Shown piece after piece: positions 2-11,053 of a DNA stretch of 64,000 nucleotides (the stretch's first letter is position 1; each line of letters opens with the position of its first letter). The position numbers were made by a program, and so were the translations under genes. The stretch comes from an uncultured beta proteobacterium (GTDB lineage Bacteria; Pseudomonadota; Gammaproteobacteria; Burkholderiales; Casimicrobiaceae): assembly GCA_963788185.1 (NCBI GenBank), contig CAWBGE010000013.1:27350-91349 (forward strand), given 5' to 3'. The notes beneath the pieces are model-generated. The model was not told the DNA's origin, did not search any database, and saw only the letters and a list, made by a program, of their open reading frames with translations.

Positions 2-922
2 TTTGCGAGCTTTGTCGCCGGCGAGGAGCGGGGCGCCGAATTGGGCCAGATCTACGGTGTCGCGCTGGCCGAGGGGCGGGTCTACGCGGTCGACAGCAAG
101 GGCCCCGGGCTGGCGGTGTTCGACCTCAACAAGCAGCAATACAGCCTGTTCACTGGATCCGGGGGCGGGCGTATGCGTCGCCCGATCAACCTGACCATCG
201 ACGCGGATGGAACCAAGTACGTCACCGACACCGGCCGCGACCAGGTGCTCATCTACGACCGCGACAACAAGTACGTCGGCGCCTTCGGCGAGCAGGGACA
301 GTTCCGCCCGGTCGACACCGCGATCGCCGGCGACCGGCTTTATGTGGTCGACATCCAGCACCACGCAATCCAGGTGCTGGACAAGAAGTCCGGCAAGCTG
401 CAGTTCAAGTTCGGCAAGCCGGGATCGAAGGAAGGCGAGCTTTACCATCCGACCAACATCGCCATCGGGCCCAACGGCGACGTGTTCGTCACCGAGACCA
501 GCAACTTCCGTGTCCAGCGCTTCACCGCCGAGGGCAAGACGTTGCGCACCTACGGCGAGGTTGGCGACACGCCCGGCAAGTTCGCCCGCCCCAAAGGCAT
601 CGCGCTCGACAAGGCGGGGCGGCTGTACGTCGCCGACGCCGCGTTTCAGAACGTGCAGATCTTCGACGCCAACGGCCTGTTGCTGATGGCGTTTGGGCAG
701 CCGGAAGGGGGCGACGGCCTGAGCCTCCCCGCGGCGATCGCCATCGATTACGACAACGTCGCACTGTTCAAGCGCTACGCCGATCCGAAGTTCAGCATCG
801 AATACCTGATCCTGGTGGCCAGCCAGCTCGCGCCGAACAAGGTCGACGTCTTCGGTTTCGGGCGCATGGCCGGCGCCGATTACTCACGCGACGACAGGAC
901 CGTCGCCGCGCCGCCGAAGTGA
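2..922 (+). CDS. NHL-repeat beta-propeller protein (5' end outside window)
   Basis: The reading frame is open from the window edge. It contains repeated NHL-type blocks: LYVVDIQHHAIQVLD, VFVTETSNFRVQRFT, LYVADAAFQNVQIFD. The stop lies 7 nt before the next gene. Confidence 0.8.
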   Translation, partial: FASFVAGEERGAELGQIYGVALAEGRVYAVDSKGPGLAVFDLNKQQYSLFTGSGGGRMRRPINLTIDADGTKYVTDTGRDQVLIYDRDNKYVGAFGEQGQFRPVDTAIAGDRLYVVDIQHHAIQVLDKKSGKLQFKFGKPGSKEGELYHPTNIAIGPNGDVFVTETSNFRVQRFTAEGKTLRTYGEVGDTPGKFARPKGIALDKAGRLYVADAAFQNVQIFDANGLLLMAFGQPEGGDGLSLPAAIAIDYDNVALFKRYADPKFSIEYLILVASQLAPNKVDVFGFGRMAGADYSRDDRTVAAPPK

Positions 923-929
923 TGGAACG

Positions 930-3032
930 GTGCGGCCACGATTCCCCAGTGCTGATTTCGCCTCCACGACGGCCACGGCAGCGGTGCCCCGCGCGTTGCG
1001 TCGCCGATTTGTCCGGCAGTGCTGCGTCCGGCGACCGCTGCTGGCCGTGATCGTCGGCCTAGCCATCGGCTCTGCCCAGGCGGAGGAGTTCACCACCACC
1101 CGTTTGACCGGCTGGGACGGGTACGTCTCCACCAGCTACTTCGCCGACCAGTTGTCGACGTCGCAGGCGCCGACCGGGAACACTCCCGGCAGCTCGTCGA
1201 GCACCACCCAGAGCGACTTTCGGGTCGACGCGTTTCTGATGACGCACGGCTACGTCTACCACCCGAAGTTCATGACCTTCGACGTGGGCGGCGGGCCGAT
1301 TTTCCAGGTCAGCCGGCTGACGACCGACGGCACCACGGACCGGACCCAGCAGCCGCTGTACAACCTGAGCGCGACCGCCACCTTCCTCGCGGACAAGCCG
1401 TACACCGGAAAGATCTACTACGAGCACCTGAACCCGACCGTCATGCTGAGCCCCGGCGAAGTGTTCCAGGAGGAGACTACCAAGGCCGGCCTCGCCTTCT
1501 CGCTGCTGGCGCCGGTCAGCCCGGTGCCATTCACCGTCGAATTGTGGCAGTTGCATACGCAGGGCGAGAGCACGTTGCGCAGCGTCGACGATCGCATCGA
1601 TCAGTTCACGTTCAAGGGCGACCGCGCCATCGGGACCTACGGCAACACCCAGATCGGCTATCAGGCGCTGCAGCAGGAATCCGCGAGCGGCAGCCTGAAC
1701 CTGCCGATCCAGAGTTCGCGGCTGCGCTCGCAGCAGTTGAACGCCGACACCAGCCTGGAGTTCGGTGCCGATCGCAATTACCGGGTGTTCAACAGCATCG
1801 TCTATTCGAAGAACGACTACACGCTGGAGCAGGGCGCCTCGCCCAAGCTCGACGACTTTCGCGTGCTGCTCAACTATCGCGGCACGCACGCGCGCGAGCT
1901 GCAGTCGGTCGGGAACTACAACTATCTGCGCAGCGTCCAGGACGGGCTGGCGACGACCGTCAACAACATGAACGCGGGGGTGAACTGGCTGCCGATGGCC
2001 GGGTCCTGGGTCTCGGCCGGCGTATTCGGCAGCGACACGCGATCGCCCGATTTCACGCTGCGCAGCTATGGCCCCGAGGCCAGCTTCAATTACGAGCGCC
2101 CGCTGCCGTTCGGCACGGCAACCGTCGGCTACGGCGTGCGCTACGACACGCGCGATCAGCGTGCCGGCACGCCGCAGACTCCGGTCGTGGGCGAGCGCGT
2201 GGTGCTGCGCGGAACCTCGCCGTCGAACCTGGCGCAACCGCTGGTGATCGAGTCGTCGGTGGTCGTCAACAACGCGCAACGCACCCAGGTCTATACGGCC
2301 GGGATCGACTACGAGTTGACCGTGGTCGGGGTGATGACACGGATCCAGCGCATCCTGTCGGGAAGTATCCTCGACGGCGAGGAGGTCCAGGTCGACTATG
2401 TCTACGACGTCGGTGGCACCTTCGCCAGCACCATACTCGACCAAAGCGCCAATCTCAATTGGCGGTGGTCGAACTATCTCAACCTGTACCTTCGCTACTA
2501 CGATTCGCGGCCGCAGGTAACGTCGGGGGTGCCGTCCGCGCCGCTCAACACGATCCACGACCTGACCTACGGCACGCGAGTCGATTGGCCGCTGCGCTTC
2601 GACCTGGAGATGCTGGTGGGCGGCTACGTCGAGCGCGAGGATCGCAACGAGACCATCGCGCCGTTTGTGCGCACCGAGGGCGAGCTCTATGTCCAGTCCG
2701 AATTGCCGCTCGTCACCAACGCGGATCTGCGGGTGGGACTGCGGCGAACGCGCACCGTGGCTGAGAACGAACTTCAGAACGTCAACCTGACTGGGTACGA
2801 CCTGTTGCTGACGTGGCGCTCGCCGCTCGGCATCACCCTTGCGGCCTCCGGCATCTATGAGCGCGACACCGGCGGCATCGACGAGCGTGAGCGCCGCCTC
2901 GGCAAGCTGCGGGCGCTATGGCGGTTCCGGCGGCTCGTCCTGACGCTGGATGTCATTCGCTCGCGCGAGTTGCAGGGCAGCTTCTCGCGCGATCACACCA
3001 GCGGCCAGATCACGCTGCGGAGGGATTTCTGA
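930..3032 (+). CDS. Predicted outer-membrane beta-barrel protein, 700 aa, unknown family
   Basis: The N-terminus has a signal peptide (RRPLLAVIVGLAIGSAQA/EEF). The mature part has no Cys and is rich in G/Y/T/N/R/D with alternating hydrophobic patterns. The C-terminus ends ITLRRDF, and a terminal Phe is typical of BAM substrates. Spacing to both flanking genes is 2-7 nt. Confidence 0.7.
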   Translation: MRPRFPSADFASTTATAAVPRALRRRFVRQCCVRRPLLAVIVGLAIGSAQAEEFTTTRLTGWDGYVSTSYFADQLSTSQAPTGNTPGSSSSTTQSDFRVDAFLMTHGYVYHPKFMTFDVGGGPIFQVSRLTTDGTTDRTQQPLYNLSATATFLADKPYTGKIYYEHLNPTVMLSPGEVFQEETTKAGLAFSLLAPVSPVPFTVELWQLHTQGESTLRSVDDRIDQFTFKGDRAIGTYGNTQIGYQALQQESASGSLNLPIQSSRLRSQQLNADTSLEFGADRNYRVFNSIVYSKNDYTLEQGASPKLDDFRVLLNYRGTHARELQSVGNYNYLRSVQDGLATTVNNMNAGVNWLPMAGSWVSAGVFGSDTRSPDFTLRSYGPEASFNYERPLPFGTATVGYGVRYDTRDQRAGTPQTPVVGERVVLRGTSPSNLAQPLVIESSVVVNNAQRTQVYTAGIDYELTVVGVMTRIQRILSGSILDGEEVQVDYVYDVGGTFASTILDQSANLNWRWSNYLNLYLRYYDSRPQVTSGVPSAPLNTIHDLTYGTRVDWPLRFDLEMLVGGYVEREDRNETIAPFVRTEGELYVQSELPLVTNADLRVGLRRTRTVAENELQNVNLTGYDLLLTWRSPLGITLAASGIYERDTGGIDERERRLGKLRALWRFRRLVLTLDVIRSRELQGSFSRDHTSGQITLRRDF

Positions 3033-3034
3033 TC

Positions 3035-4057
3035 ATGCGTCCGCTTGCTCCCGTCTTGTTGGCTGCCGCGATCCTGCTGGGCGCTTGTGCCAGCCCCGCG
3101 ACCCCCCCCATCGACGATAGCGCTGCATTGGTTTGGCCGTCGGCGCCGGCCGAGCCGCGGATCAAGTACGTGCGCGCGTTCTCGACGCCCGAGGATCTCG
3201 GCATCGCCAAGGGCTTTGGTCAGCGGCTGCTCGAGCTCCTGCTCGGCGCGACGCAGGTGCAGCTGGTGCGTCCCATGGCTGTCGTCGAGGCCGACGGCAT
3301 GCTGTATGTCGGGGACCCGGGTGCCAAGGGCGTGCATCGCTTCGATCTCGCGAACGGCAATTACGCCCTTGTCGGCGTCGACGGGGGCACGACGCTGCCT
3401 TCTCCGGTTGGGCTCGCGCGTGGCGAGGCGGGTGCGATTTACATTGCCGACTCGGCGTTGGGGGCGGTGTTTCTGTTGCCGCGAGGGGCAGCGGCTGCGT
3501 CGCGGGTCGCGCTCGCAGGCGAGTTGCGCCAGCCGACTGGAATAGCCTTCGATCCCGTTGCCAGGAGGCTCTACGTCGTCGACACCGGCAATCACAGGAT
3601 CAACGTGTACGCGGCGGACGGCAGCCTGGTGACGACGATCGGGCAGCGCGGCGGTGGCGACGGCGAGTTCAACTTCCCGACGATGATCTGGCGCGGAGCG
3701 GGCGGCCGGTTGCTGGTCACCGACTCGCTCAATTTTCGCACCCAGATCTTCGATGCCGACGGCCGCTTTGTCGCCAAGTTCGGCCGTGCCGGCGACGGAT
3801 CGGGGGATTCGCCGCGGCAAAAGGGTGTGGCCACCGATCGGTACGGCCACGTCTACGTGGTCGACTCGCTGCTCCACGCAGTGCAGATCTTCGACGACTC
3901 CGGACAGTTCCTGCTGTCGATCGGCGGCCAGGGCCGCGAGCGTGGCGATTTCTGGCTGCCCACCGGAATCTTCATCGGCGACGACGACACCATCTATGTC
4001 GCCGATTCGTACAACCAGCGGGTGCAGGTGTTTCGCTACGTGGGAGGTCCGACATGA
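3035..4057 (+). CDS. NHL-repeat lipoprotein
   Basis: The ATG at 3035 follows the previous stop by 2 nt. A lipobox is present (MRPLAPVLLAAAILLGAC). NHL blocks: LYVVDTGNHRINVYA, LLVTDSLNFRTQIFD, VYVVDSLLHAVQIFD, IYVADSYNQRVQVFR. Confidence 0.85.
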   Translation: MRPLAPVLLAAAILLGACASPATPPIDDSAALVWPSAPAEPRIKYVRAFSTPEDLGIAKGFGQRLLELLLGATQVQLVRPMAVVEADGMLYVGDPGAKGVHRFDLANGNYALVGVDGGTTLPSPVGLARGEAGAIYIADSALGAVFLLPRGAAAASRVALAGELRQPTGIAFDPVARRLYVVDTGNHRINVYAADGSLVTTIGQRGGGDGEFNFPTMIWRGAGGRLLVTDSLNFRTQIFDADGRFVAKFGRAGDGSGDSPRQKGVATDRYGHVYVVDSLLHAVQIFDDSGQFLLSIGGQGRERGDFWLPTGIFIGDDDTIYVADSYNQRVQVFRYVGGPT

Positions 4058-5736
4058 GACGGGCGGTACGAGGGGCGATCGCTGCCCTGTTGCTTGCGGC
4101 GCTGGCCGGAACGATGCCGGCATGGGCTGCGGTCGCGACGACCAAACACAACCTGTCGACGAGCGGCCCGGGGACGGTCAAGTCCACCACCGAGAGCGAA
4201 ACCTGCGTGTTCTGTCATGCGCCGCACAATGGCGCGCCCGCGGGGGCGCTGTGGAACCGACGGGCGCCGGGCAGCACCTACACTCCGTACACGAGCTCGA
4301 CCGCCCGCGGCAATGCCGGGCAACCCAATGGGGCGTCGCTGCTGTGCCTCTCCTGCCACGACGGGACGATTGCGCTGGGCGAACTGCTCAATCGTGCCAC
4401 GACGGTGGCGATGACATCCGCGAACATGCCGGTGGGTACGACCCGGCTGGGTACCGATCTCTCCGACGATCATCCGGTATCGTTCGCGTATACGGCATCG
4501 CTTGCAACTGCACGCGGCGGCGAACTGGTCAATCCGGCAACGTTGACAGGGAGCGTCAAGCTCGACGGTTCCGGGCAGATGCAGTGCACGTCGTGCCACG
4601 ACCCGCACAACGATGCCAACGGCAAGTTCCTGGTGATGGTCAACCAGGCATCGGCGTTGTGCATGACCTGCCACAGCAAGAGCAATTGGTCGACAAGCGA
4701 CCACAAGCTGTCGGCGCGAACCTGGAACGGCGTGGCGCCGGATCCCTGGCCGCATACGGCAGGTACCACGGTGGCGGCCAACGCCTGCGAGAACTGTCAT
4801 CAGCCGCATTCGGCGCCGGGCAAGAAATGGCTGCTCAACACGGCAGCCGAAGAAAGTACTTGTTTCTCCTGCCACAACGGCAACGTGGCGGCCAAGAACA
4901 TGCAGTCGGAGTTCAACAAGGCGTCGGTCCACTTCGTGTCTGGCACGACGGGGGTTCACGATCCGGCCGAGTCTGCCGTAGTTTCGTCACGCCACGTCGA
5001 ATGTGCCGATTGCCACAATCCCCACGCCGCGTCCGCCGGCGGACCGCTGAGCGGCGTGCGCGGCGTCTCGATTGCCAACACGGAAGTGAATCCGGTCACA
5101 GCCGAATACCAGATCTGCTTTCGTTGTCACGGCGACAGTCCCGGCAAGCCGTCTCCGCGCACGCCACGCCAGATCGCTCAGGCCAACACGCGGCTCGAGT
5201 TCAGCACGACCAACCCGTCCTACCACCCGGTGGCAGGGGTCGGCAAGAACACCAGCGTGCCGAGTCTGATTTCACCGCTGACGACCGCCAGCTCGATCGG
5301 CTGCGGCAGCTGTCACAACAACAACGCGGGCCCCGGCGCCAACGGAACGGGACCCAAGGGGCCGCACGGGTCGACCTACACGCCGTTGCTCGAGCGGCAG
5401 TACGTGACCACCGACAACACCACGGAGAGCGCCGCGAACTACGCGCTCTGCTACAAGTGCCACAGCCGCACCAGCATTCTCGGCAACGCGAGTTTCAAGG
5501 ACCACAACAAGCACATCGTCGGCGAGCGTACACCGTGCAACGTCTGCCACGACCCGCATGGCATCAGTTCGACGCAGGGCAACACGACCAACAACAGCAA
5601 ACTGATCAACTTCGACACCTCGGTGGTGACCGCCGTGTCGCCAACGGTGCCGATCCGCTTTGTCGTGACGGGCACCAACAAGGGAAGTTGCTACCTCGTC
5701 TGTCACGGCAAGTCCCACAACCCGCTGACCTACTGA
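4054..5736 (+). CDS. Multihaem cytochrome c (11 CXXCH plus 1 CX3CH), secreted, 560 aa
   Basis: The start overlaps the upstream stop (ATGA at 4054-4057). Signal peptide: MRRAVRGAIAALLLAALAGTMPAWA. Haem motifs: CVFCH, CLSCH, CTSCH, CMTCH, CENCH, CFSCH, CADCH, CFRCH, CGSCH, CYKCH, CNVCH and a C-terminal CYLVCH. Several sit in CxxCHDPH/CxxCHxPH contexts that resemble doubled-CXXCH domains. Confidence 0.9.
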   Translation: MRRAVRGAIAALLLAALAGTMPAWAAVATTKHNLSTSGPGTVKSTTESETCVFCHAPHNGAPAGALWNRRAPGSTYTPYTSSTARGNAGQPNGASLLCLSCHDGTIALGELLNRATTVAMTSANMPVGTTRLGTDLSDDHPVSFAYTASLATARGGELVNPATLTGSVKLDGSGQMQCTSCHDPHNDANGKFLVMVNQASALCMTCHSKSNWSTSDHKLSARTWNGVAPDPWPHTAGTTVAANACENCHQPHSAPGKKWLLNTAAEESTCFSCHNGNVAAKNMQSEFNKASVHFVSGTTGVHDPAESAVVSSRHVECADCHNPHAASAGGPLSGVRGVSIANTEVNPVTAEYQICFRCHGDSPGKPSPRTPRQIAQANTRLEFSTTNPSYHPVAGVGKNTSVPSLISPLTTASSIGCGSCHNNNAGPGANGTGPKGPHGSTYTPLLERQYVTTDNTTESAANYALCYKCHSRTSILGNASFKDHNKHIVGERTPCNVCHDPHGISSTQGNTTNNSKLINFDTSVVTAVSPTVPIRFVVTGTNKGSCYLVCHGKSHNPLTY

Positions 5737-5778
5737 GGCCCGCGGTACGAAAACGGCACCACGAGAGAGAGAACGAAC

Positions 5779-6543
5779 ATGCTGCGACGCCGAACGCTAC
5801 AGGATCTTGCGGCGATGTTGTCGCTGGCGCTGCTGGCTTGCGTCGGAACGACGGCCCGCGCGCAGGATTCGGCCTGCCTGCAATGCCACAGCGACCTGGC
5901 CAAGGAGAAGGTCGTGCACGCCGCATTGCAAATGGGCTGCAAGACCTGCCACACCGGGATCGACGCGTCGAAATACCCGCACAAGCTGACCGGAACGATC
6001 GCCAAGGGACTCTCGGCGCCCGAGGCAGAGCTTTGCATCGGCTGCCACGAGAAGGAGAAGTTCAAGAAGAAGGTCACCCACGCCGCAGTCACCATGGGCT
6101 GCAGTGGCTGTCACGAGCCGCACTCGTCGGCAAACGAGAAGCTGCTGACCGCCAAGCTGCCGGCGGTCTGCCACACGTGCCACGACAAGAAGGAGTTCGC
6201 CGGCAAGATTACCCACGCGCCGGCCGAGGCCGGGATGTGCGGCGCGTGCCATGACCCGCATGCGTCCGATCACGCGGCCCTGCTCACCAAGCCGACAGCG
6301 GCGCTGTGTCTGGAGTGCCACGACGAAGTGAAGAAGAAACCCCACGTGGTGGCGGGCTTCTCCCGCAATGGCCATCCGTTGGGTGACGAAAAACGGCCAG
6401 CACCAGTCGCTGATCCGCTGCGCAAGGACAAGACTTTTTCGTGCACCAGTTGCCACGAACCGCATCGCTCGGAGGTGCCCAGGTTGAACCGCATGGACCC
6501 GAAGTCGTCGACCGGGTTTTGCCAGAAATGTCATCCGATGTGA
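5779..6543 (+). CDS. Nonahaem cytochrome c (9 CXXCH), periplasmic, 254 aa
   Basis: A signal peptide ends in ARAQD. Haem motifs: CLQCH, CKTCH, CIGCH, CSGCH, CHTCH, CGACH, CLECH, CTSCH, CQKCH. They are arranged as repeated dihaem units of the form CxxCH-(about 10)-(V/I)xHA-(about 6)-CxxCH(E/D)PH. Confidence 0.9.
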   Translation: MLRRRTLQDLAAMLSLALLACVGTTARAQDSACLQCHSDLAKEKVVHAALQMGCKTCHTGIDASKYPHKLTGTIAKGLSAPEAELCIGCHEKEKFKKKVTHAAVTMGCSGCHEPHSSANEKLLTAKLPAVCHTCHDKKEFAGKITHAPAEAGMCGACHDPHASDHAALLTKPTAALCLECHDEVKKKPHVVAGFSRNGHPLGDEKRPAPVADPLRKDKTFSCTSCHEPHRSEVPRLNRMDPKSSTGFCQKCHPM

Positions 6544-6623
6544 GCGTCGCCCGAAATTCCGTCTCTCAGGCTGCCACTTCAATTTACAATCCACGATCTC
6601 GTCCCCCATTGGAGAAGTTGACC

Positions 6624-7334
6624 ATGAAGCAGTTGTTGATAATTGTCGCGATGTGTTGCGCGAGTATTGCCTGGGCCGCGGACAAGGCGCCGCCGCCTCA
6701 AGCCGCACCGATCAAGGGTGCGGTTCTCGAAGTCATGGAAGTGGACGTCTACACCTACGTTCGTCTCAAGACCGCGACCGGGGAGACCTGGGCCGCGGTG
6801 CCCAAGGCGGTCGTGGTCAAGGGCAGCGAAGTGACGATCGAGTCCCCGATGATCATGGACAATTTCGAGAGCAAGACGCTGAAGCGGAAGTTCGACAAGA
6901 TCGTCTTCGGCACGCTGGGCGGCAAGGCGCCGAGTGCCGGCGGCAAGGCTGGCGTGGGCGAGCTAGCTGCGGCCCACGAAAGTGCGGGCAAGGCCACGGA
7001 TGTCGGCGACGTGAAGGTGTCGAAGGCCACCGGGCCGAATGCGCGCACGGTGGCGGAAGTCACCACCAAGACCACGGAACTCAAGGACAAGCCGGTCGTC
7101 GTGCGGGGCAAGGTGGTGAAGTACAACGCAGCGATCATGGGCAAGAACTGGATTCACCTGCGCGACGGAACAGGCTTGACGGCCGACAAGACCAACGACG
7201 TGCTGGTGACGACCGTCGACCAGGCCAAGGTCGGCGATGTGGTGACGGTGAAGGGTGTCGTACGCACCGACCGGGATCTCGGGTCGGGCTATTCGTACAA
7301 GGTACTGATCGAGGAAGCCACGCTGCAGAAATAG
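6624..7334 (+). CDS. Secreted protein of unknown function with OB-fold-like C-terminal half
   Basis: An RBS (GGAGAAG) lies 8 nt upstream of the ATG at 6624. Signal peptide: MKQLLIIVAMCCASIAWA. The C-terminal segment GKVVKYNAAIMGKNWIHLRDGTG...VTVKGVVRTDRDLGSGYSYKVLIEEA resembles families usually annotated as OB-fold. That assignment is from memory only. Confidence 0.7.
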   Translation: MKQLLIIVAMCCASIAWAADKAPPPQAAPIKGAVLEVMEVDVYTYVRLKTATGETWAAVPKAVVVKGSEVTIESPMIMDNFESKTLKRKFDKIVFGTLGGKAPSAGGKAGVGELAAAHESAGKATDVGDVKVSKATGPNARTVAEVTTKTTELKDKPVVVRGKVVKYNAAIMGKNWIHLRDGTGLTADKTNDVLVTTVDQAKVGDVVTVKGVVRTDRDLGSGYSYKVLIEEATLQK

Positions 7335-7343
7335 CAGAGCGCC

Positions 7344-7407
7344 TGTAGGAGCGACTTTAGTCGCGAACTGGCGCCAATTTCCATCGCGGCTGAAGCCGCT
7401 CCTACAG
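7344..7407. repeat. REP doublet (REPIN-like inverted pair)
   Basis: TGTAGGAGCGACTTTAGTCGCGA (7344-7366) and the inverted TCGCGGCTGAAGCCGCTCCTACA (7385-7407). Each arm contains its own short palindrome. The reverse complement closely matches the doublet at 16722-16788. Confidence 0.8.
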
Positions 7408-7439
7408 CAGACGACCCTCGCTTGTACGCGGTTGTTTTG

Positions 7440-7453
7440 TTGACTCCGATCAA
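7440..7453 (+). promoter_or_regulatory. FNR/Anr-type box TTGAC-TCCG-ATCAA upstream of hemN
   Basis: This matches the TTGAT-N4-ATCAA consensus at 9 of 10 half-site positions. It is centred about 77 nt upstream of the hemN ATG. TAACAT (7475-7480) lies where a -10 would sit for a class II (-41.5) promoter. Confidence 0.6.
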
Positions 7454-7523
7454 CGCTCGGAGGGACCTTTGCAGTAACATTGCCGCTCATTCGCGGGTGT
7501 ACCACCGCTTATAGGGAGTTGCC

Positions 7524-8921
7524 ATGGCCAATGCCGCCGCCGCCGATCTCGTCCTCGACACCGATCTGGTGAAGAAATACGACGGGTTCGGTCCCCGCTA
7601 CACCTCGTATCCCACTGCTGACCGCTTTCACGGCGGAGTCCGTGCCGAGCAGTACGTGAACGCGCTCTCGACGCGCAATCACGAGCGGCCGACGGCGCCG
7701 CTTTCGCTGTACGTGCACATCCCGTTCTGCAACACCATCTGTTACTACTGCGCGTGCAACAAGGTGATCACCAAGGATCACGGGCGCTCGGCGAAATACA
7801 TCCGTTACGTGGGCCGGGAGATCGACATCGTCGGCGGCCTGATCGAGGGCGGGCCGAAAGTCGAGCAGCTGCACTGGGGCGGCGGCACGCCGACGTTCCT
7901 CGCCCGCGACGAGATGACCACCCTCATGGGGATGCTGCGCGGCGGCTTCGAGTTCTCGCCGCAGGCGGAAGTCTCGATCGAAGTCGATCCGCGCAAGGTC
8001 GGCGCCGACACGATCGTGTTCCTGAGCGAGCTCGGGTTCAATCGCATCTCGGTCGGCATCCAGGATTTCGATCCGGCGGTGCAGGAGGCGGTCAACCGCA
8101 TCCAGACCGAGGCCGAGACGATGACGGTGATCGAAGCGGCGCGCGCCAACGGCTTCGTGTCGGTGAACGCGGACCTGATCTACGGCCTGCCGCGGCAGTC
8201 GGTGGCGGGGTTCTCGGCCACGCTCGACAAGGTGATCGCGGTCGCGCCCGATCGCATCGCGCTCTACAGCTACGCGCACGTGCCGCACCTGTTCAAGCCG
8301 CAGCGGCGCATCGACATCGACGCCATGCCCGCGCCGGAGACCAAGCTCGCGATCCTGGCGCTCGCCATCGAGAAGCTCGGCGCGGCCGGCTACGTCTACA
8401 TCGGCATGGACCACTTCGCCAAGCCGACCGACGAACTCGCGGTCGCGCAGGCGAACCGAAAGCTGCACCGGAACTTCCAGGGCTACTCGACCAAGCCCGA
8501 CTGCGACATGCTGGCCTTCGGCATCTCGGCGATCGGCAAGGTCGGCGCGTCGTACGTCGCCAACGTGAAGACGCTGGACGAGTACTACGACAAGCTCGAC
8601 GCCAACGAGCTGCCGGTGATGCGCGGCGTCGAGCTCAACGCCGACGATCTCCTGCGTCGCAACGTCATCCAGAAGCTGATGTGCAATTTCGAGCTCGACT
8701 TCGCCGAGGTCGGGGCCGAGTACGGGATGCCGTTCGCCGAGTACTTCGCGCCGGATCTCGCGGCGTTGAAGCCGCTCGCTGTCGATGGCCTGGTCGAGCT
8801 CGACGGTCGATCGGTGCGCGTCACCGCGCGAGGGCGCCTGCTGGTGCGGACGGTGGCGATGCACTTCGACCGCTACCTGCGCGAGGCGCAGGCCAAGGCG
8901 CAGTACTCGAAGGTGATCTGA
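7524..8921 (+). CDS. hemN: Oxygen-independent coproporphyrinogen III oxidase (radical SAM)
   Basis: The radical SAM motif HIPFCNTICYYCACN is present. The protein is full length (465 aa) and HemN-like throughout (YTSYPT, QLHWGGGTPTF, GISAIG). Confidence 0.95.
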   Translation: MANAAAADLVLDTDLVKKYDGFGPRYTSYPTADRFHGGVRAEQYVNALSTRNHERPTAPLSLYVHIPFCNTICYYCACNKVITKDHGRSAKYIRYVGREIDIVGGLIEGGPKVEQLHWGGGTPTFLARDEMTTLMGMLRGGFEFSPQAEVSIEVDPRKVGADTIVFLSELGFNRISVGIQDFDPAVQEAVNRIQTEAETMTVIEAARANGFVSVNADLIYGLPRQSVAGFSATLDKVIAVAPDRIALYSYAHVPHLFKPQRRIDIDAMPAPETKLAILALAIEKLGAAGYVYIGMDHFAKPTDELAVAQANRKLHRNFQGYSTKPDCDMLAFGISAIGKVGASYVANVKTLDEYYDKLDANELPVMRGVELNADDLLRRNVIQKLMCNFELDFAEVGAEYGMPFAEYFAPDLAALKPLAVDGLVELDGRSVRVTARGRLLVRTVAMHFDRYLREAQAKAQYSKVI

Positions 8922-9776: not shown

Positions 9777-10319
9777 TCAGGGCGGCAGCGCAGCCGCGCC
9801 GAGACCGCGCCGCGCCGCCATTTCGCGGCTCACCTCCACCAGTGCCGACGGCGGGAGGAGCGCGCCTGCGAGCGGGATCAATTCGGCCTCTTCTCGGGCG
9901 ATGTGCAGGTCGTAGGCGCGCCGAATCTCGATGACCTGCCTCGGGCCGAGATTCGCCCGCGCACCGGCAGCGATGGCGGTGAGCAAGGGGCGCAGATGCA
10001 TCCAGCTGCTCGCCAGCCGGTGATGATCGGCAGCGAGTTCGGCGACGAGCGTTGACGCGACCTGCGGCGCCAGCGCGACCAGCCGGGGGAAGATGCTCTC
10101 CTCCTCGTCCGCATGATGATGGACCGCGGCCGTGTCGAAATACCTGAGTATCCCGCGCGCCGCGCCACGCGCATCGTCGTCGCAGCCGTGCTCCGGCAAG
10201 TGCCGCTGCAATCGGGCGAGCGTCGCGAGCTGCCGCTCGATCCGGCGATGGCACGCCGACAGCATGCCCAGCGGATCGTCGTAGCCCGGAGCCGCGTCGC
10301 CGAGAAGGTCCGAGACCAT
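9777..10319 (-). CDS. Hemerythrin-like (HHE cation-binding) domain protein
   Basis: His/Glu ligand-like motifs are present: CHRRIE, HHHADEEESIFP, DHHRL, HIAREE. The start is 11 nt downstream of the Crp-family gene stop. Confidence 0.75.
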   Translation of the reverse strand: MVSDLLGDAAPGYDDPLGMLSACHRRIERQLATLARLQRHLPEHGCDDDARGAARGILRYFDTAAVHHHADEEESIFPRLVALAPQVASTLVAELAADHHRLASSWMHLRPLLTAIAAGARANLGPRQVIEIRRAYDLHIAREEAELIPLAGALLPPSALVEVSREMAARRGLGAAALPP

Positions 10320-10330
10320 CGTCGTTGGCC

Positions 10331-11053
10331 TCAGCCGCGCGCCAGCGCTGCCAACGCAGTTCGATCGACGACGCGGATGCGTTCGCGGCCGAGGTCGACC
10401 CAGCCGCGATCCTCGAAGTTGCGCAGGAGCCGCGACACGATTTCACGCACGCTGCCAAGCTCGTCGGCGAGGGCCTGATGCGTCGCATGGATATCGCCGA
10501 CGGGAGACTTGCCGACCAGCAGCGCGGCAAGCCGCTGGTCGAGTTTCTGGTAGGCGACCGCCTCGACCACCTGCATCAGCGATGACAGCCGCTCGCCGAA
10601 CATGGCGAAGACGTGGCGGCGAAAAGTCTCGTCGCCGGCGATCAGTGCCTGGAACTCCTGCGGAGGAATCACCAGCAGTTCGACCTCGGTCTCGGCAATG
10701 CCCGAGGCGTCGTAGTTGGCCTGGCCCAGTAGGCAGCTGCCGGACAGCAGGCAGGACTCGCCGGGCTTGACGCGGTACAGCTGCAATTCCCGCCCGTTGG
10801 GATAGCGCTGCAGCACCCGTATGCTGCCGCCCAGCACCAGCGGATACCCCGAGCACGGCGAATGCTCGCTGAACATCACCGTACCGGCCGGAACCTTGCG
10901 ATAAACGCTCGCCCGGACCAGGCGCTCGAGGGTTTCGCGCGGCGCGGGCGCCAGCGAAGGAAACGATGCGACGACGCGCGCCGCGAGGGGCGACAGTCCA
11001 TCGATCACGGGGGCGGGCATGGCGGGCAAGGGTGGCGGCTGGGGGGGGCGCAA
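10331..11053 (-). CDS. Crp/Fnr-family transcriptional regulator (no FNR-type N-terminal Cys cluster)
   Basis: A cNMP-binding-like beta-roll (GTVMFSEHSPCSGYPLVLGGSIRV) is followed by a C-terminal HTH, ATHQALADELGSVREIVSRLLRNFEDRGWV. An alternative start exists at 11020. Confidence 0.85.
   Translation of the reverse strand: MRPPQPPPLPAMPAPVIDGLSPLAARVVASFPSLAPAPRETLERLVRASVYRKVPAGTVMFSEHSPCSGYPLVLGGSIRVLQRYPNGRELQLYRVKPGESCLLSGSCLLGQANYDASGIAETEVELLVIPPQEFQALIAGDETFRRHVFAMFGERLSSLMQVVEAVAYQKLDQRLAALLVGKSPVGDIHATHQALADELGSVREIVSRLLRNFEDRGWVDLGRERIRVVDRTALAALARG

Follow-up and report, generated by a model that had tools for sequence, protein, structure and literature searches.

What purpose is served by a run of six genes in which a large predicted outer-membrane barrel stands between two propeller proteins and is followed by two multihaem cytochromes? 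The question is raised by the first 7,334 nucleotides (nt) of a 64,000-nt stretch of DNA, here called the window, from an uncultured betaproteobacterium of the Casimicrobiaceae (assembly GCA_963788185.1, contig CAWBGE010000013.1, positions 27,350 to 91,349). A preliminary description, made from the sequence of the window, took the run for an uncharacterised porin–cytochrome module akin to the Mtr, Pio and Pcc conduits, with a role in extracellular electron transfer (EET). Such a role is still the best reading. The kinship, however, is a different one, since the module is of the omcE/Uet type and not a conduit of the Mtr/Pio type. The word ‘uncharacterised’ holds for the barrel, which belongs to no described family, but not for the module, whose kind is already described: its nearest relatives are the omcE clusters and, by composition, Uet. 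The answer developed here, held at slightly better than even chances, is that the module is the Beta- and Gammaproteobacterial counterpart of the omcE-type extracellular-cytochrome (‘nanowire’) cluster and that it builds a haem wire through the outer-membrane barrel. Three of its features seem to be new: the fusion of an OmcE-like domain to an eight-haem extension in one cytochrome (J), the ninth histidine of another (T), and the distinct, unassigned family of the barrel.

The six genes, g1 to g6, lie on the + strand, code for exported products and are spaced by 7, 2, -4, 42 and 80 nt, so that the close packing first described is borne out, as is the order in which a barrel flanked by NHL propellers precedes the multihaem cytochromes. 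A search within the run for a + strand terminator or an internal promoter gave nothing convincing. The window opens inside the operon, and its edge cuts off the 5' end of g1 (2..922). The preliminary description was right to place the start of the operon outside the window, since in relatives a gene for an OmcE-like tetrahaem cytochrome lies immediately 5' of g1. This stand-alone tetrahaem protein is called T here, and the 12-haem protein of the g4 type is called J; labels such as L001 (the series runs to L087) denote individual genome stretches. In the closest relative, L001, whose proteins are 78–95% identical to those of the window, T (about 220 aa, at 7767-8429) is encoded directly upstream of a full-length homologue of g1, which puts the operon boundary one gene to the left of the window. 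The region would thus be the 3' five-sixths of one operon with the order T–NHL1–barrel–NHL2–J–9-haem–OB-like, T being inferred and outside.

The identity of the module is most readily seen in its cytochromes. The gene for J (g4, 4054..5736) overlaps the g3 stop by 4 nt with its start and codes for a secreted protein of 560 aa with 11 CXXCH motifs and one CX3CH motif (CYLVCH). All 12 motifs are invariant in 65 homologues and, since this includes the CX3CH, J is a true 12-haem protein; with the nine CXXCH of g5 the total comes to the 21 haem-binding motifs originally counted. The g4 family is well conserved and comprises at least 7977 clusters, the top matches being 64–93% identical. A phmmer search of the PDB with g4 gave two significant matches only, 7TFS (E=2.5e-29), which is the OmcE filament of G. 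sulfurreducens, and 9YUQ (E=1.3e-24), which is the OmcE bundle of D. soudanensis. Both matches span residues 8-209 of g4 and the full length of OmcE, and the OmcE-like tetrahaem domain occupies mature residues 26-209 (4129..4680). T from L001 matches the same two entries (7TFS, E=5.4e-25; 9YUQ, E=8.9e-23).

Haem ligation in these proteins was compared by aligning 64 T proteins and 47 J N-terminal domains with the two OmcEs of known structure. The four CXXCH motifs and four distal histidines of OmcE are invariant in T and in both solved OmcEs, whilst in the J N-terminal domains seven of the eight ligand histidines are invariant and one is present in 98%. T and the J N-terminal domain share a mean identity of 37–39% with the solved OmcEs, between which the identity is 40%. 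As judged from these alignments, the N-terminal domain of g4, like T, is homologous to OmcE, a cytochrome that forms filaments. In one locus, L016, a second OmcE-like tetrahaem gene lies about 22 nt 3' of the J gene. The remainder of g4 is a C-terminal extension (residues 210-560; 4681..5733) with seven CXXCH, the CX3CH and, across the 65 homologues, 12 further invariant histidines. It resembles the Pfam MtrC/MtrF domain II/IV model (48.5 bits) and, weakly (E~1e-8), the 8-10-haem proteins of Geobacter-type omcE loci.

Four loci for comparison came from a protein database queried with OmcE: L084 (G. sulfurreducens), L086 and L087 (both Desulfuromonadia-type), and L085, from a metagenome-assembled genome (MAG) of a member of the Rhodocyclaceae. 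In this Geobacter-type layout, resB-ccsB come first and are followed by genes for two 8-10-haem cytochromes, one NHL lipoprotein, OmcE, in some cases another NHL lipoprotein, and a protein of 713-774 aa that lacks Pfam domains. The two propeller proteins of the window tie the module to these loci a second time. The truncated g1 product (NHL1) is a six-bladed NHL β-propeller (Pfam NHL, E=2.4e-18), and g3 (NHL2; 3035..4057) codes for an NHL β-propeller lipoprotein (Pfam NHL, E=9.7e-24) with the lipobox LLGAC followed by the linker VWPSAPAEPRI. Only one lipoprotein was recognised in the preliminary description. This is correct for g3, but it leaves out the g1 type, for which the full-length homologue in L001 (8728..9858; 95% identical to g1) has the lipobox LAGC followed by YPAPPEPPRI. 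By this signal, the NHL1 of relatives is a lipoprotein of the outer membrane. Behind the lipobox, the g1/g3 type shares the linker motif [FWY][WY]P..P..PRI with the NHL lipoproteins of Geobacter-type omcE loci. Similarity extends over the propellers: g1 matches the NHL lipoproteins of these loci with E=2e-34 to 2e-43 (L084, E=2.3e-34); g3 is 36% identical to that of L084 over 313 aa (E=1.8e-64) and matches those of L086 and L087 with E~1e-55. Each of g1 and g3 matches both NHL lipoproteins of L087.

The barrel protein, g2 (930..3032, with possible alternative starts at 984 or 996), has 700 aa and the features expected from the first inspection of the sequence, namely a signal peptide, a mature chain free of cysteine and a C-terminal phenylalanine (...RRDF). 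The mature chain has no cysteine because its only two lie in the N-terminal leader, ahead of the predicted cleavage site between SAQA and EE (residue 51). Pfam gave no match at all, and the curated NCBIfam models none above threshold. A word-indexed search found 53 relatives, every one unnamed and without a Pfam domain, and a profile search of 1.84 billion representatives gave 1959 clusters at E<=1e-3; by these searches, g2 is a member of a sizeable but undescribed family. An AlphaFold2 model built from 44 sequences (predicted local distance difference test score, pLDDT, 87.2; predicted template modelling score, pTM, 0.73) is all-β, with some 30 long antiparallel strands, and its best Foldseek matches in the PDB are all outer-membrane barrels (TonB-dependent receptors, LptD and MtrB). 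The best template modelling score (TM-score) to MtrB (6r2q_B) is 0.39/0.41, and no TM-score exceeds 0.41; a barrel larger than any solved one would be expected to give such low values. The g2 family profile has no match among PDB sequences, MtrB included. The protein thus models with confidence as a very large outer-membrane β-barrel of 28-30 strands, as had been proposed.

This barrel is nearly devoid of loops. By DSSP, all the connecting loops have at most 11 aa except for a 57-residue insert (residues 427-483; 2208..2378) that forms a small conserved β-domain between barrel strands 18 and 19. Mean conservation is higher in the insert (0.67) than in the barrel body (0.58), and Q453, D460, G467, R471 and G478 are invariant. 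From strand parity in the model, the insert is probably periplasmic. A sub-threshold match of g2 residues 441-494 to an NCBIfam phage ‘tail tube’ model (24.7 bits; cut-off, 60) is probably meaningless, although it falls on the best-conserved stretch of g2.

Is this set of genes a unit? In a scan with one genome per species, 88 relatives of g2 were found, and 80 of their loci were kept. The presence of genes was scored by tblastn with the six window proteins, and the ratios given here are of loci with the gene to loci in which it could be assessed. T, NHL1, barrel, NHL2 and J occur in fixed order and on the same strand, with NHL1 in 75/77, NHL2 in 71/72, T in 70/72 and J in 66/68 (at least 96% in each case). 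The adjacency of these genes is far beyond chance, since the same order and strand recur in 80 loci of different species. The co-occurrence anticipated for all six genes therefore applies to T, NHL1, the barrel, NHL2 and J, but not to g6, which adjoins the module in about 5/80 loci, nor fully to g5, since g5 or an analogous multihaem gene follows J in 28/51.

The cluster is present in at least 88 species-level genomes, among them denitrifiers that can be cultured, namely the Aromatoleum and Azoarcus strains listed next, and lineages of the sulfur and iron cycles (Sulfuritalea, Leptothrix, Rubrivivax, Sedimenticola, Ca. Thiodiazotropha and Acidiferrobacteraceae). Most hosts are betaproteobacterial: Rhodocyclaceae, Sulfuritalea, Aromatoleum toluvorans Td21, A. 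tolulyticum ATCC 51758, Azoarcus sp. Aa7, Leptothrix, Rubrivivax and Ideonella. The gammaproteobacterial hosts are Acidiferrobacteraceae, Thioalkalispiraceae, Sedimenticola and Ca. Thiodiazotropha. By way of life the hosts are mostly denitrifiers and sulfur oxidisers, and heterotrophic denitrifiers are found among them as well as oxidisers of iron or sulfur.

Downstream of J the module is more variable. In the window, g5 (5779..6543) codes for a 9-haem cytochrome of 254 aa that is probably soluble and periplasmic. It matches the 8-10-haem proteins of the omcE loci L084, L086 and L087 (E=1.7e-29 to 6.5e-22) and the PDB chain 6r2q_A (E=8e-13). The chain is labelled ‘Cystathionine beta-synthase’ in the PDB table; entry 6R2Q is the Mtr complex, and chain A (333 aa) is the decahaem MtrA. 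By this match, g5 is a distant relative of MtrA. The leader contains the sequence LLAC, and assignment as a lipoprotein was rejected because relatives have ordinary signal peptidase I leaders in which no lipobox cysteine is conserved. The gene 3' of J, g5 or an analogous multihaem gene where present, is g5-like in Betaproteobacteria and codes for an 8-haem protein in Gammaproteobacteria, so that g5 belongs to the module often but not always. The last gene, g6 (6624..7334), specifies a secreted protein of 236 aa with two OB-like halves. Its Pfam matches are sub-threshold OB-fold hits only (RMI2, 19.6 bits; tRNA_anti-codon, 15.3 bits), and no relative above threshold was found in Pfam, NCBIfam or PDB sequences. 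Homologues near the module occur in L001, L031 (6557-7165, - strand), L049 (1045-1731) and L065 (426-707, - strand); that of L049 lies directly 5' of NHL1, in the slot usually taken by the tetrahaem gene. Thus g6 is an occasional accessory and not a core part.

Other genes are found beside the module in particular lineages. In L001, the operon is preceded by a gene on the - strand (1120-3642) for a secreted protein of 840 aa that has a single CXXCH and numerous cadherin/He_PIG/Big_9 repeats, and by + strand genes for a PAS sensor kinase (3910-5946) and a LuxR-type response regulator (5943-6590); the first is a possible adhesin, and the other two are possibly a dedicated pair of regulators. In L081, a Rhodocyclaceae MAG, a set divergent from the module (5650-7948, - strand) encodes a 293-aa protein of no family, a 478-aa c7/c3-type multihaem cytochrome, a ferredoxin/FAD oxidoreductase and a sigma-54 two-component pair. 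Gammaproteobacterial loci carry extra genes downstream (L047, 13652-20808; L064, 16711-21983; L054, 16056-20331; L072, 13387-19833) for 7-8-haem cytochromes, a cytochrome-b561-like membrane protein (PF01292), a membrane-anchored trihaem protein, a third NHL protein and a 12-13-haem protein. It is plausible that these provide an inner-membrane quinol link and so complete a path from quinone to the outside. In the rest of the 64-kb window no other multihaem cytochrome or EET gene was found, and the remainder is housekeeping.

When would the module be expressed? In 16/66 loci, FNR/CRP-type boxes (TTGAY-N4-RTCAA) lie no more than 450 bp 5' of T (background, 0.015 per 480 bp), and 17 of the 36 matches in 1.2 Mb of loci fall in the 480-bp stretches 5' of T. 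L001 has two (7515-7528 and 7559-7572). Since the boxes precede T, they point to expression of the cluster under low oxygen in many lineages. The anaerobic or microaerobic life suggested earlier for the host of the window rested on an FNR-boxed hemN and on nearby hemerythrin and Crp genes, and all of these can be located: one box at 7440-7453, ahead of hemN (7524..8921), a hemerythrin gene (9777..10319, - strand) and a gene for a Crp/Fnr-family regulator (10331..11053, - strand). They likewise point to low oxygen.

How might these parts work together? The products would all be exported by Sec. Cytochromes of the c type acquire their haems in the periplasm, so those of the module would have to cross the outer membrane, or sit in it, already folded. 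The g2 barrel, nearly loop-free and, judging by its 28-30 strands, of sufficient width, may pass or sheath such a folded cytochrome. The NHL lipoproteins, by analogy with the omcE and osc clusters, could dock at the periplasmic mouth of the barrel as assembly or gating factors. T would be the extracellular OmcE-like subunit, polymerising or at least stacking through the ligation of a neighbour's haem by histidine; such ligation of one haem across the subunit boundary is documented for OmcE and OmcS (PMC9473688, PMC12307469). Carrying the same OmcE module at its N-terminus, J should be able to join the T stack, where it would act as an end unit whose C-terminal 8-haem part reaches the periplasm by way of the barrel. 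There, g5 may shuttle electrons between inner-membrane quinol/quinone enzymes and J. Expression would be tied to low oxygen in many lineages, given the FNR-type boxes, and the cell would exchange electrons with its surroundings, whether by reduction of Fe/Mn or an electrode or by uptake.

A number of observations weigh against a wire of this kind. No filament has so far been seen in any host of the cluster, and the physiological importance of cytochrome filaments is in dispute (PMC11077965, PMC13194489). The window itself contains no T gene, its presence here being inferred from L001 and 69 other loci. In T, a ninth histidine (PLWNH) is invariant which is lacking in both solved OmcEs and in the J N-terminal domain, and the D. 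soudanensis preprint considers, as a speculation, a ‘stopper’ in which nine histidines accompany four haems (bioRxiv 10.1101/2025.10.22.684050). T may not polymerise, since its ninth histidine fits this predicted non-extending unit. The AlphaFold2 model of g4 from 65 homologues is unusable (pLDDT 44.5), so that the proposed geometry of J in the barrel stays conjectural. Nor is g2 recognisably related to the 713-774-aa barrels of the omcE loci: BLASTP gave E=0.036 for one short segment, hmmsearch 2.7 bits, and hhalign of the g2 profile a probability of 0.6% with a single barrel sequence and 0.3% with a 4-sequence alignment. By these four negative sequence tests, g2 is not detectably homologous to the Geobacter-type omcE barrel.

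The explanation that profits most from these points is a discrete conduit through the outer membrane that forms no polymer. J or the 9-haem protein would sit inside the barrel, as MtrA does in MtrB, a monomeric T at the cell surface would cap the OmcE-like domain of J to give a fixed 16-haem wire, and the NHL lipoproteins would stabilise the complex. This is essentially the idea of the preliminary description and also the Uet model, the authors of which proposed such an architecture for a 28-strand barrel with a tetrahaem and an undecahaem cytochrome (bioRxiv 10.1101/2022.05.06.490989). A ninth invariant histidine suits a self-satisfied, non-extending T; the match of g5 to 6r2q_A, the place of MtrB as best in TM-score among the Foldseek matches of g2 and the presence of J in nearly all the loci, with g5 optional, also speak for a conduit. 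However, T is as near to either proven filament former as one of these is to the other, and none of the eight ligand histidines has been lost from it. The parts list is that of a nanowire cluster and not of Mtr, Pio or Pcc, and the module is not recognised by the MtrB_PioB and DmsE/MtrA family models (the scores are given below). A weaker argument is that T is the first gene of the operon, the usual place of a major subunit. A conduit of this sort is a possible explanation, to be taken seriously but held with less belief than a haem wire built through the barrel.

It is improbable that the module serves respiration or detoxification in the periplasm with a soluble substrate. In such a system the NHL proteins would be enzymes or binders and the barrel an uptake pore, with nothing exposed at the surface. 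NHL/SGL propellers do include enzymes, and the NHL proteins of the module have weak Pfam matches to SGL, arylesterase and Vgb-lyase; FNR-type control is typical of anaerobic respiration, which agrees with hosts that are for the most part denitrifiers and sulfur oxidisers. However, T and J are homologous to an extracellular filament cytochrome, a barrel of 28-30 strands is far larger than any solute porin, no gene for a catalytic redox enzyme is conserved in the module, and the closest relatives of its NHL proteins are those of omcE loci. It is more improbable still that the barrel and propellers carry out an unrelated export, of polysaccharide or an adhesin, beside cytochrome genes that are merely adjacent: the barrel does lack a family assignment, and L057 has the barrel and an NHL fusion without recognisable cytochrome genes (part of this locus is masked), but T and J accompany it in unchanged order in 66-70 of some 70 loci that could be assessed, from two proteobacterial classes, the coding regions overlap or nearly touch, and there are no polysaccharide genes in the window, L001 or L081.

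If a haem wire is indeed built, what would J contribute? The secretion, initiation and termination of OmcE filaments are called unsolved, and OmcE operons are said to encode no OmcE-like candidate for a tip (bioRxiv 10.1101/2025.10.22.684050). A tentative and rather doubtful proposal is that J is the missing base of an OmcE-type filament, its initiator or anchor, with the N-terminal module pairing with the first T, through the cross-ligation of haem by histidine that also joins the filament subunits, and the C-terminal rod threading an NHL-gated channel of about 30 strands and so linking the filament electrically to the periplasm. If this were true, machines for the export of cytochrome wires would have been assembled more than once from different barrels, and they would be widespread in denitrifying and iron- or sulfur-oxidising Beta- and Gammaproteobacteria, including cultured Aromatoleum. 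How multihaem filaments are secreted, initiated, anchored and wired is an open question, as the 2025 D. soudanensis preprint states, and the module offers the Geobacter omcE kit in a compact five-gene form together with J, a concrete candidate for the base or tip of a filament. Since the hosts include culturable strains of Aromatoleum and Azoarcus, the question becomes accessible to genetics outside Geobacter. If the module is functional, EET by these host groups may be under-appreciated in soils, lakes and wastewater.

The systems with which the module can be compared differ in how much they share with it. MtrCAB, MtoAB, PioAB and the Geobacter Pcc and Ext systems also combine a large outer-membrane barrel with multihaem cytochromes. 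In contrast to the 26 strands of the Mtr barrel, that of the module has 28-30, and its two NHL lipoproteins and OmcE-type cytochromes have no counterparts in Mtr. Membership of the Mtr/Pio/Pcc group, as first suggested, was rejected, since g2 has no match to the MtrB_PioB Pfam model. Against the MtrA/DmsE model (TIGR03508; cut-off 192.2) g5 scores 86.8 bits, with 9 haem motifs, and g4 59 bits, and against the surface decahaem OmcA/MtrC model (TIGR03507; cut-off 209.3) the score is 16.1 bits. A proteogenomics paper on Georgfuchsia treats MtrCAB only and has no bearing on the module.

NHL proteins were also thought at first to accompany PCC3-type clusters, but the literature found places them with Uet, Occ and omcE, and the term NHL is absent from the PCC3 paper of He et al. 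2017. The Occ cluster of Ca. Dechloromonas occultata (Rhodocyclales) has 19 genes, 10 of them for cytochromes, and is expressed during Mn(III) reduction (bioRxiv 10.1101/695007). By its description it resembles the module in being betaproteobacterial and cytochrome-rich, with 6-NHL-repeat proteins and an extracellular ‘undecahaem’ cytochrome. The undecahaem OccP has 922 aa, however, whereas the module consists of 5-7 genes with a 12-haem protein of 560 aa. In the osc (omcS companion) cluster of G. sulfurreducens, the channel-like OscEFG and propeller-like OscD are proposed to secrete and shape the filament, according to papers that cite Shen et al. (2025, Cell Chem Biol). As described there, a filament cytochrome gene is likewise accompanied by channel-like and β-propeller-like partners, but the filament subunit is the hexahaem OmcS and a prolyl-isomerase chaperone, OscH, is included. 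Searches of PDB sequences with g4, g5 and T gave no match to OmcS.

The Uet cluster (uetABCDEFGHIJ) of Ca. Tenderia electrophaga (bioRxiv 10.1101/2022.05.06.490989), which has also been reported in Gallionella and Leptothrix, is closer. By description it shares with the module a tetrahaem cytochrome (UetA) and an 11-haem cytochrome (UetJ), both of them predicted to lie outside the cell, together with a barrel (UetC) of about 28 strands and two NHL proteins (UetH and UetI), and both systems are found in Gamma- and Betaproteobacteria. The peptidyl-prolyl isomerase (UetB), c7-type trihaem cytochromes (UetD/E/G) and cupredoxin (UetF) of Uet are not encoded in the window, L001 or L081. The barrel gene, which lies between the NHL genes in the module, is 7-9 genes from that of the large cytochrome in Uet. 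L. cholodnii SP-6, which carries UetC and UetJ, is absent among the genome hits of the g2 family.

Nearest of all are the omcE clusters, represented by the GSU0615-GSU0619 region of G. sulfurreducens and by D. soudanensis WTL. A Geobacter-type cluster also occurs in the Rhodocyclaceae, in L085 (CAJPEY010000176, 222-12377), where glycosyltransferase genes follow it. Its OmcE is 65% and its 752-aa barrel 66% identical to the G. sulfurreducens or Geobacter counterparts, and it looks like a horizontal acquisition. Two different OmcE-type clusters therefore exist in the Rhodocyclaceae. A literature search for OmcE in connection with Rhodocyclaceae, Aromatoleum, Thiodiazotropha or Sedimenticola found nothing, whilst omcE homologues with a porin gene close by have been reported in Pseudomonadota (bioRxiv 10.1101/2025.10.22.684050). 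The module differs from the omcE clusters in its order, T–NHL–barrel–NHL–J as opposed to two multihaem cytochromes, NHL, OmcE, an optional NHL and the barrel, and in having no resB/ccsB or glycosylation genes adjacent to it in the window or L001. It differs too in the ninth invariant histidine of T and in J, the N-terminal third of which is an OmcE module, a domain that the multihaem proteins of the examined Geobacter-type loci do not have. In composition, however, the two agree. According to the D. soudanensis preprint, OmcE is invariably accompanied in the smallest omcE clusters by two multihaem cytochromes, two β-propeller lipoproteins and a large β-barrel (bioRxiv 10.1101/2025.10.22.684050), and the parts list of the module is equal to this, with a large outer-membrane barrel that is encoded here between the two NHL genes. 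Three of the components are homologous to proteins of the omcE clusters, namely the tetrahaem cytochrome (E~1e-25 to 1e-33), the NHL lipoproteins (to 1.8e-64) and the 9-haem cytochrome (1.7e-29).

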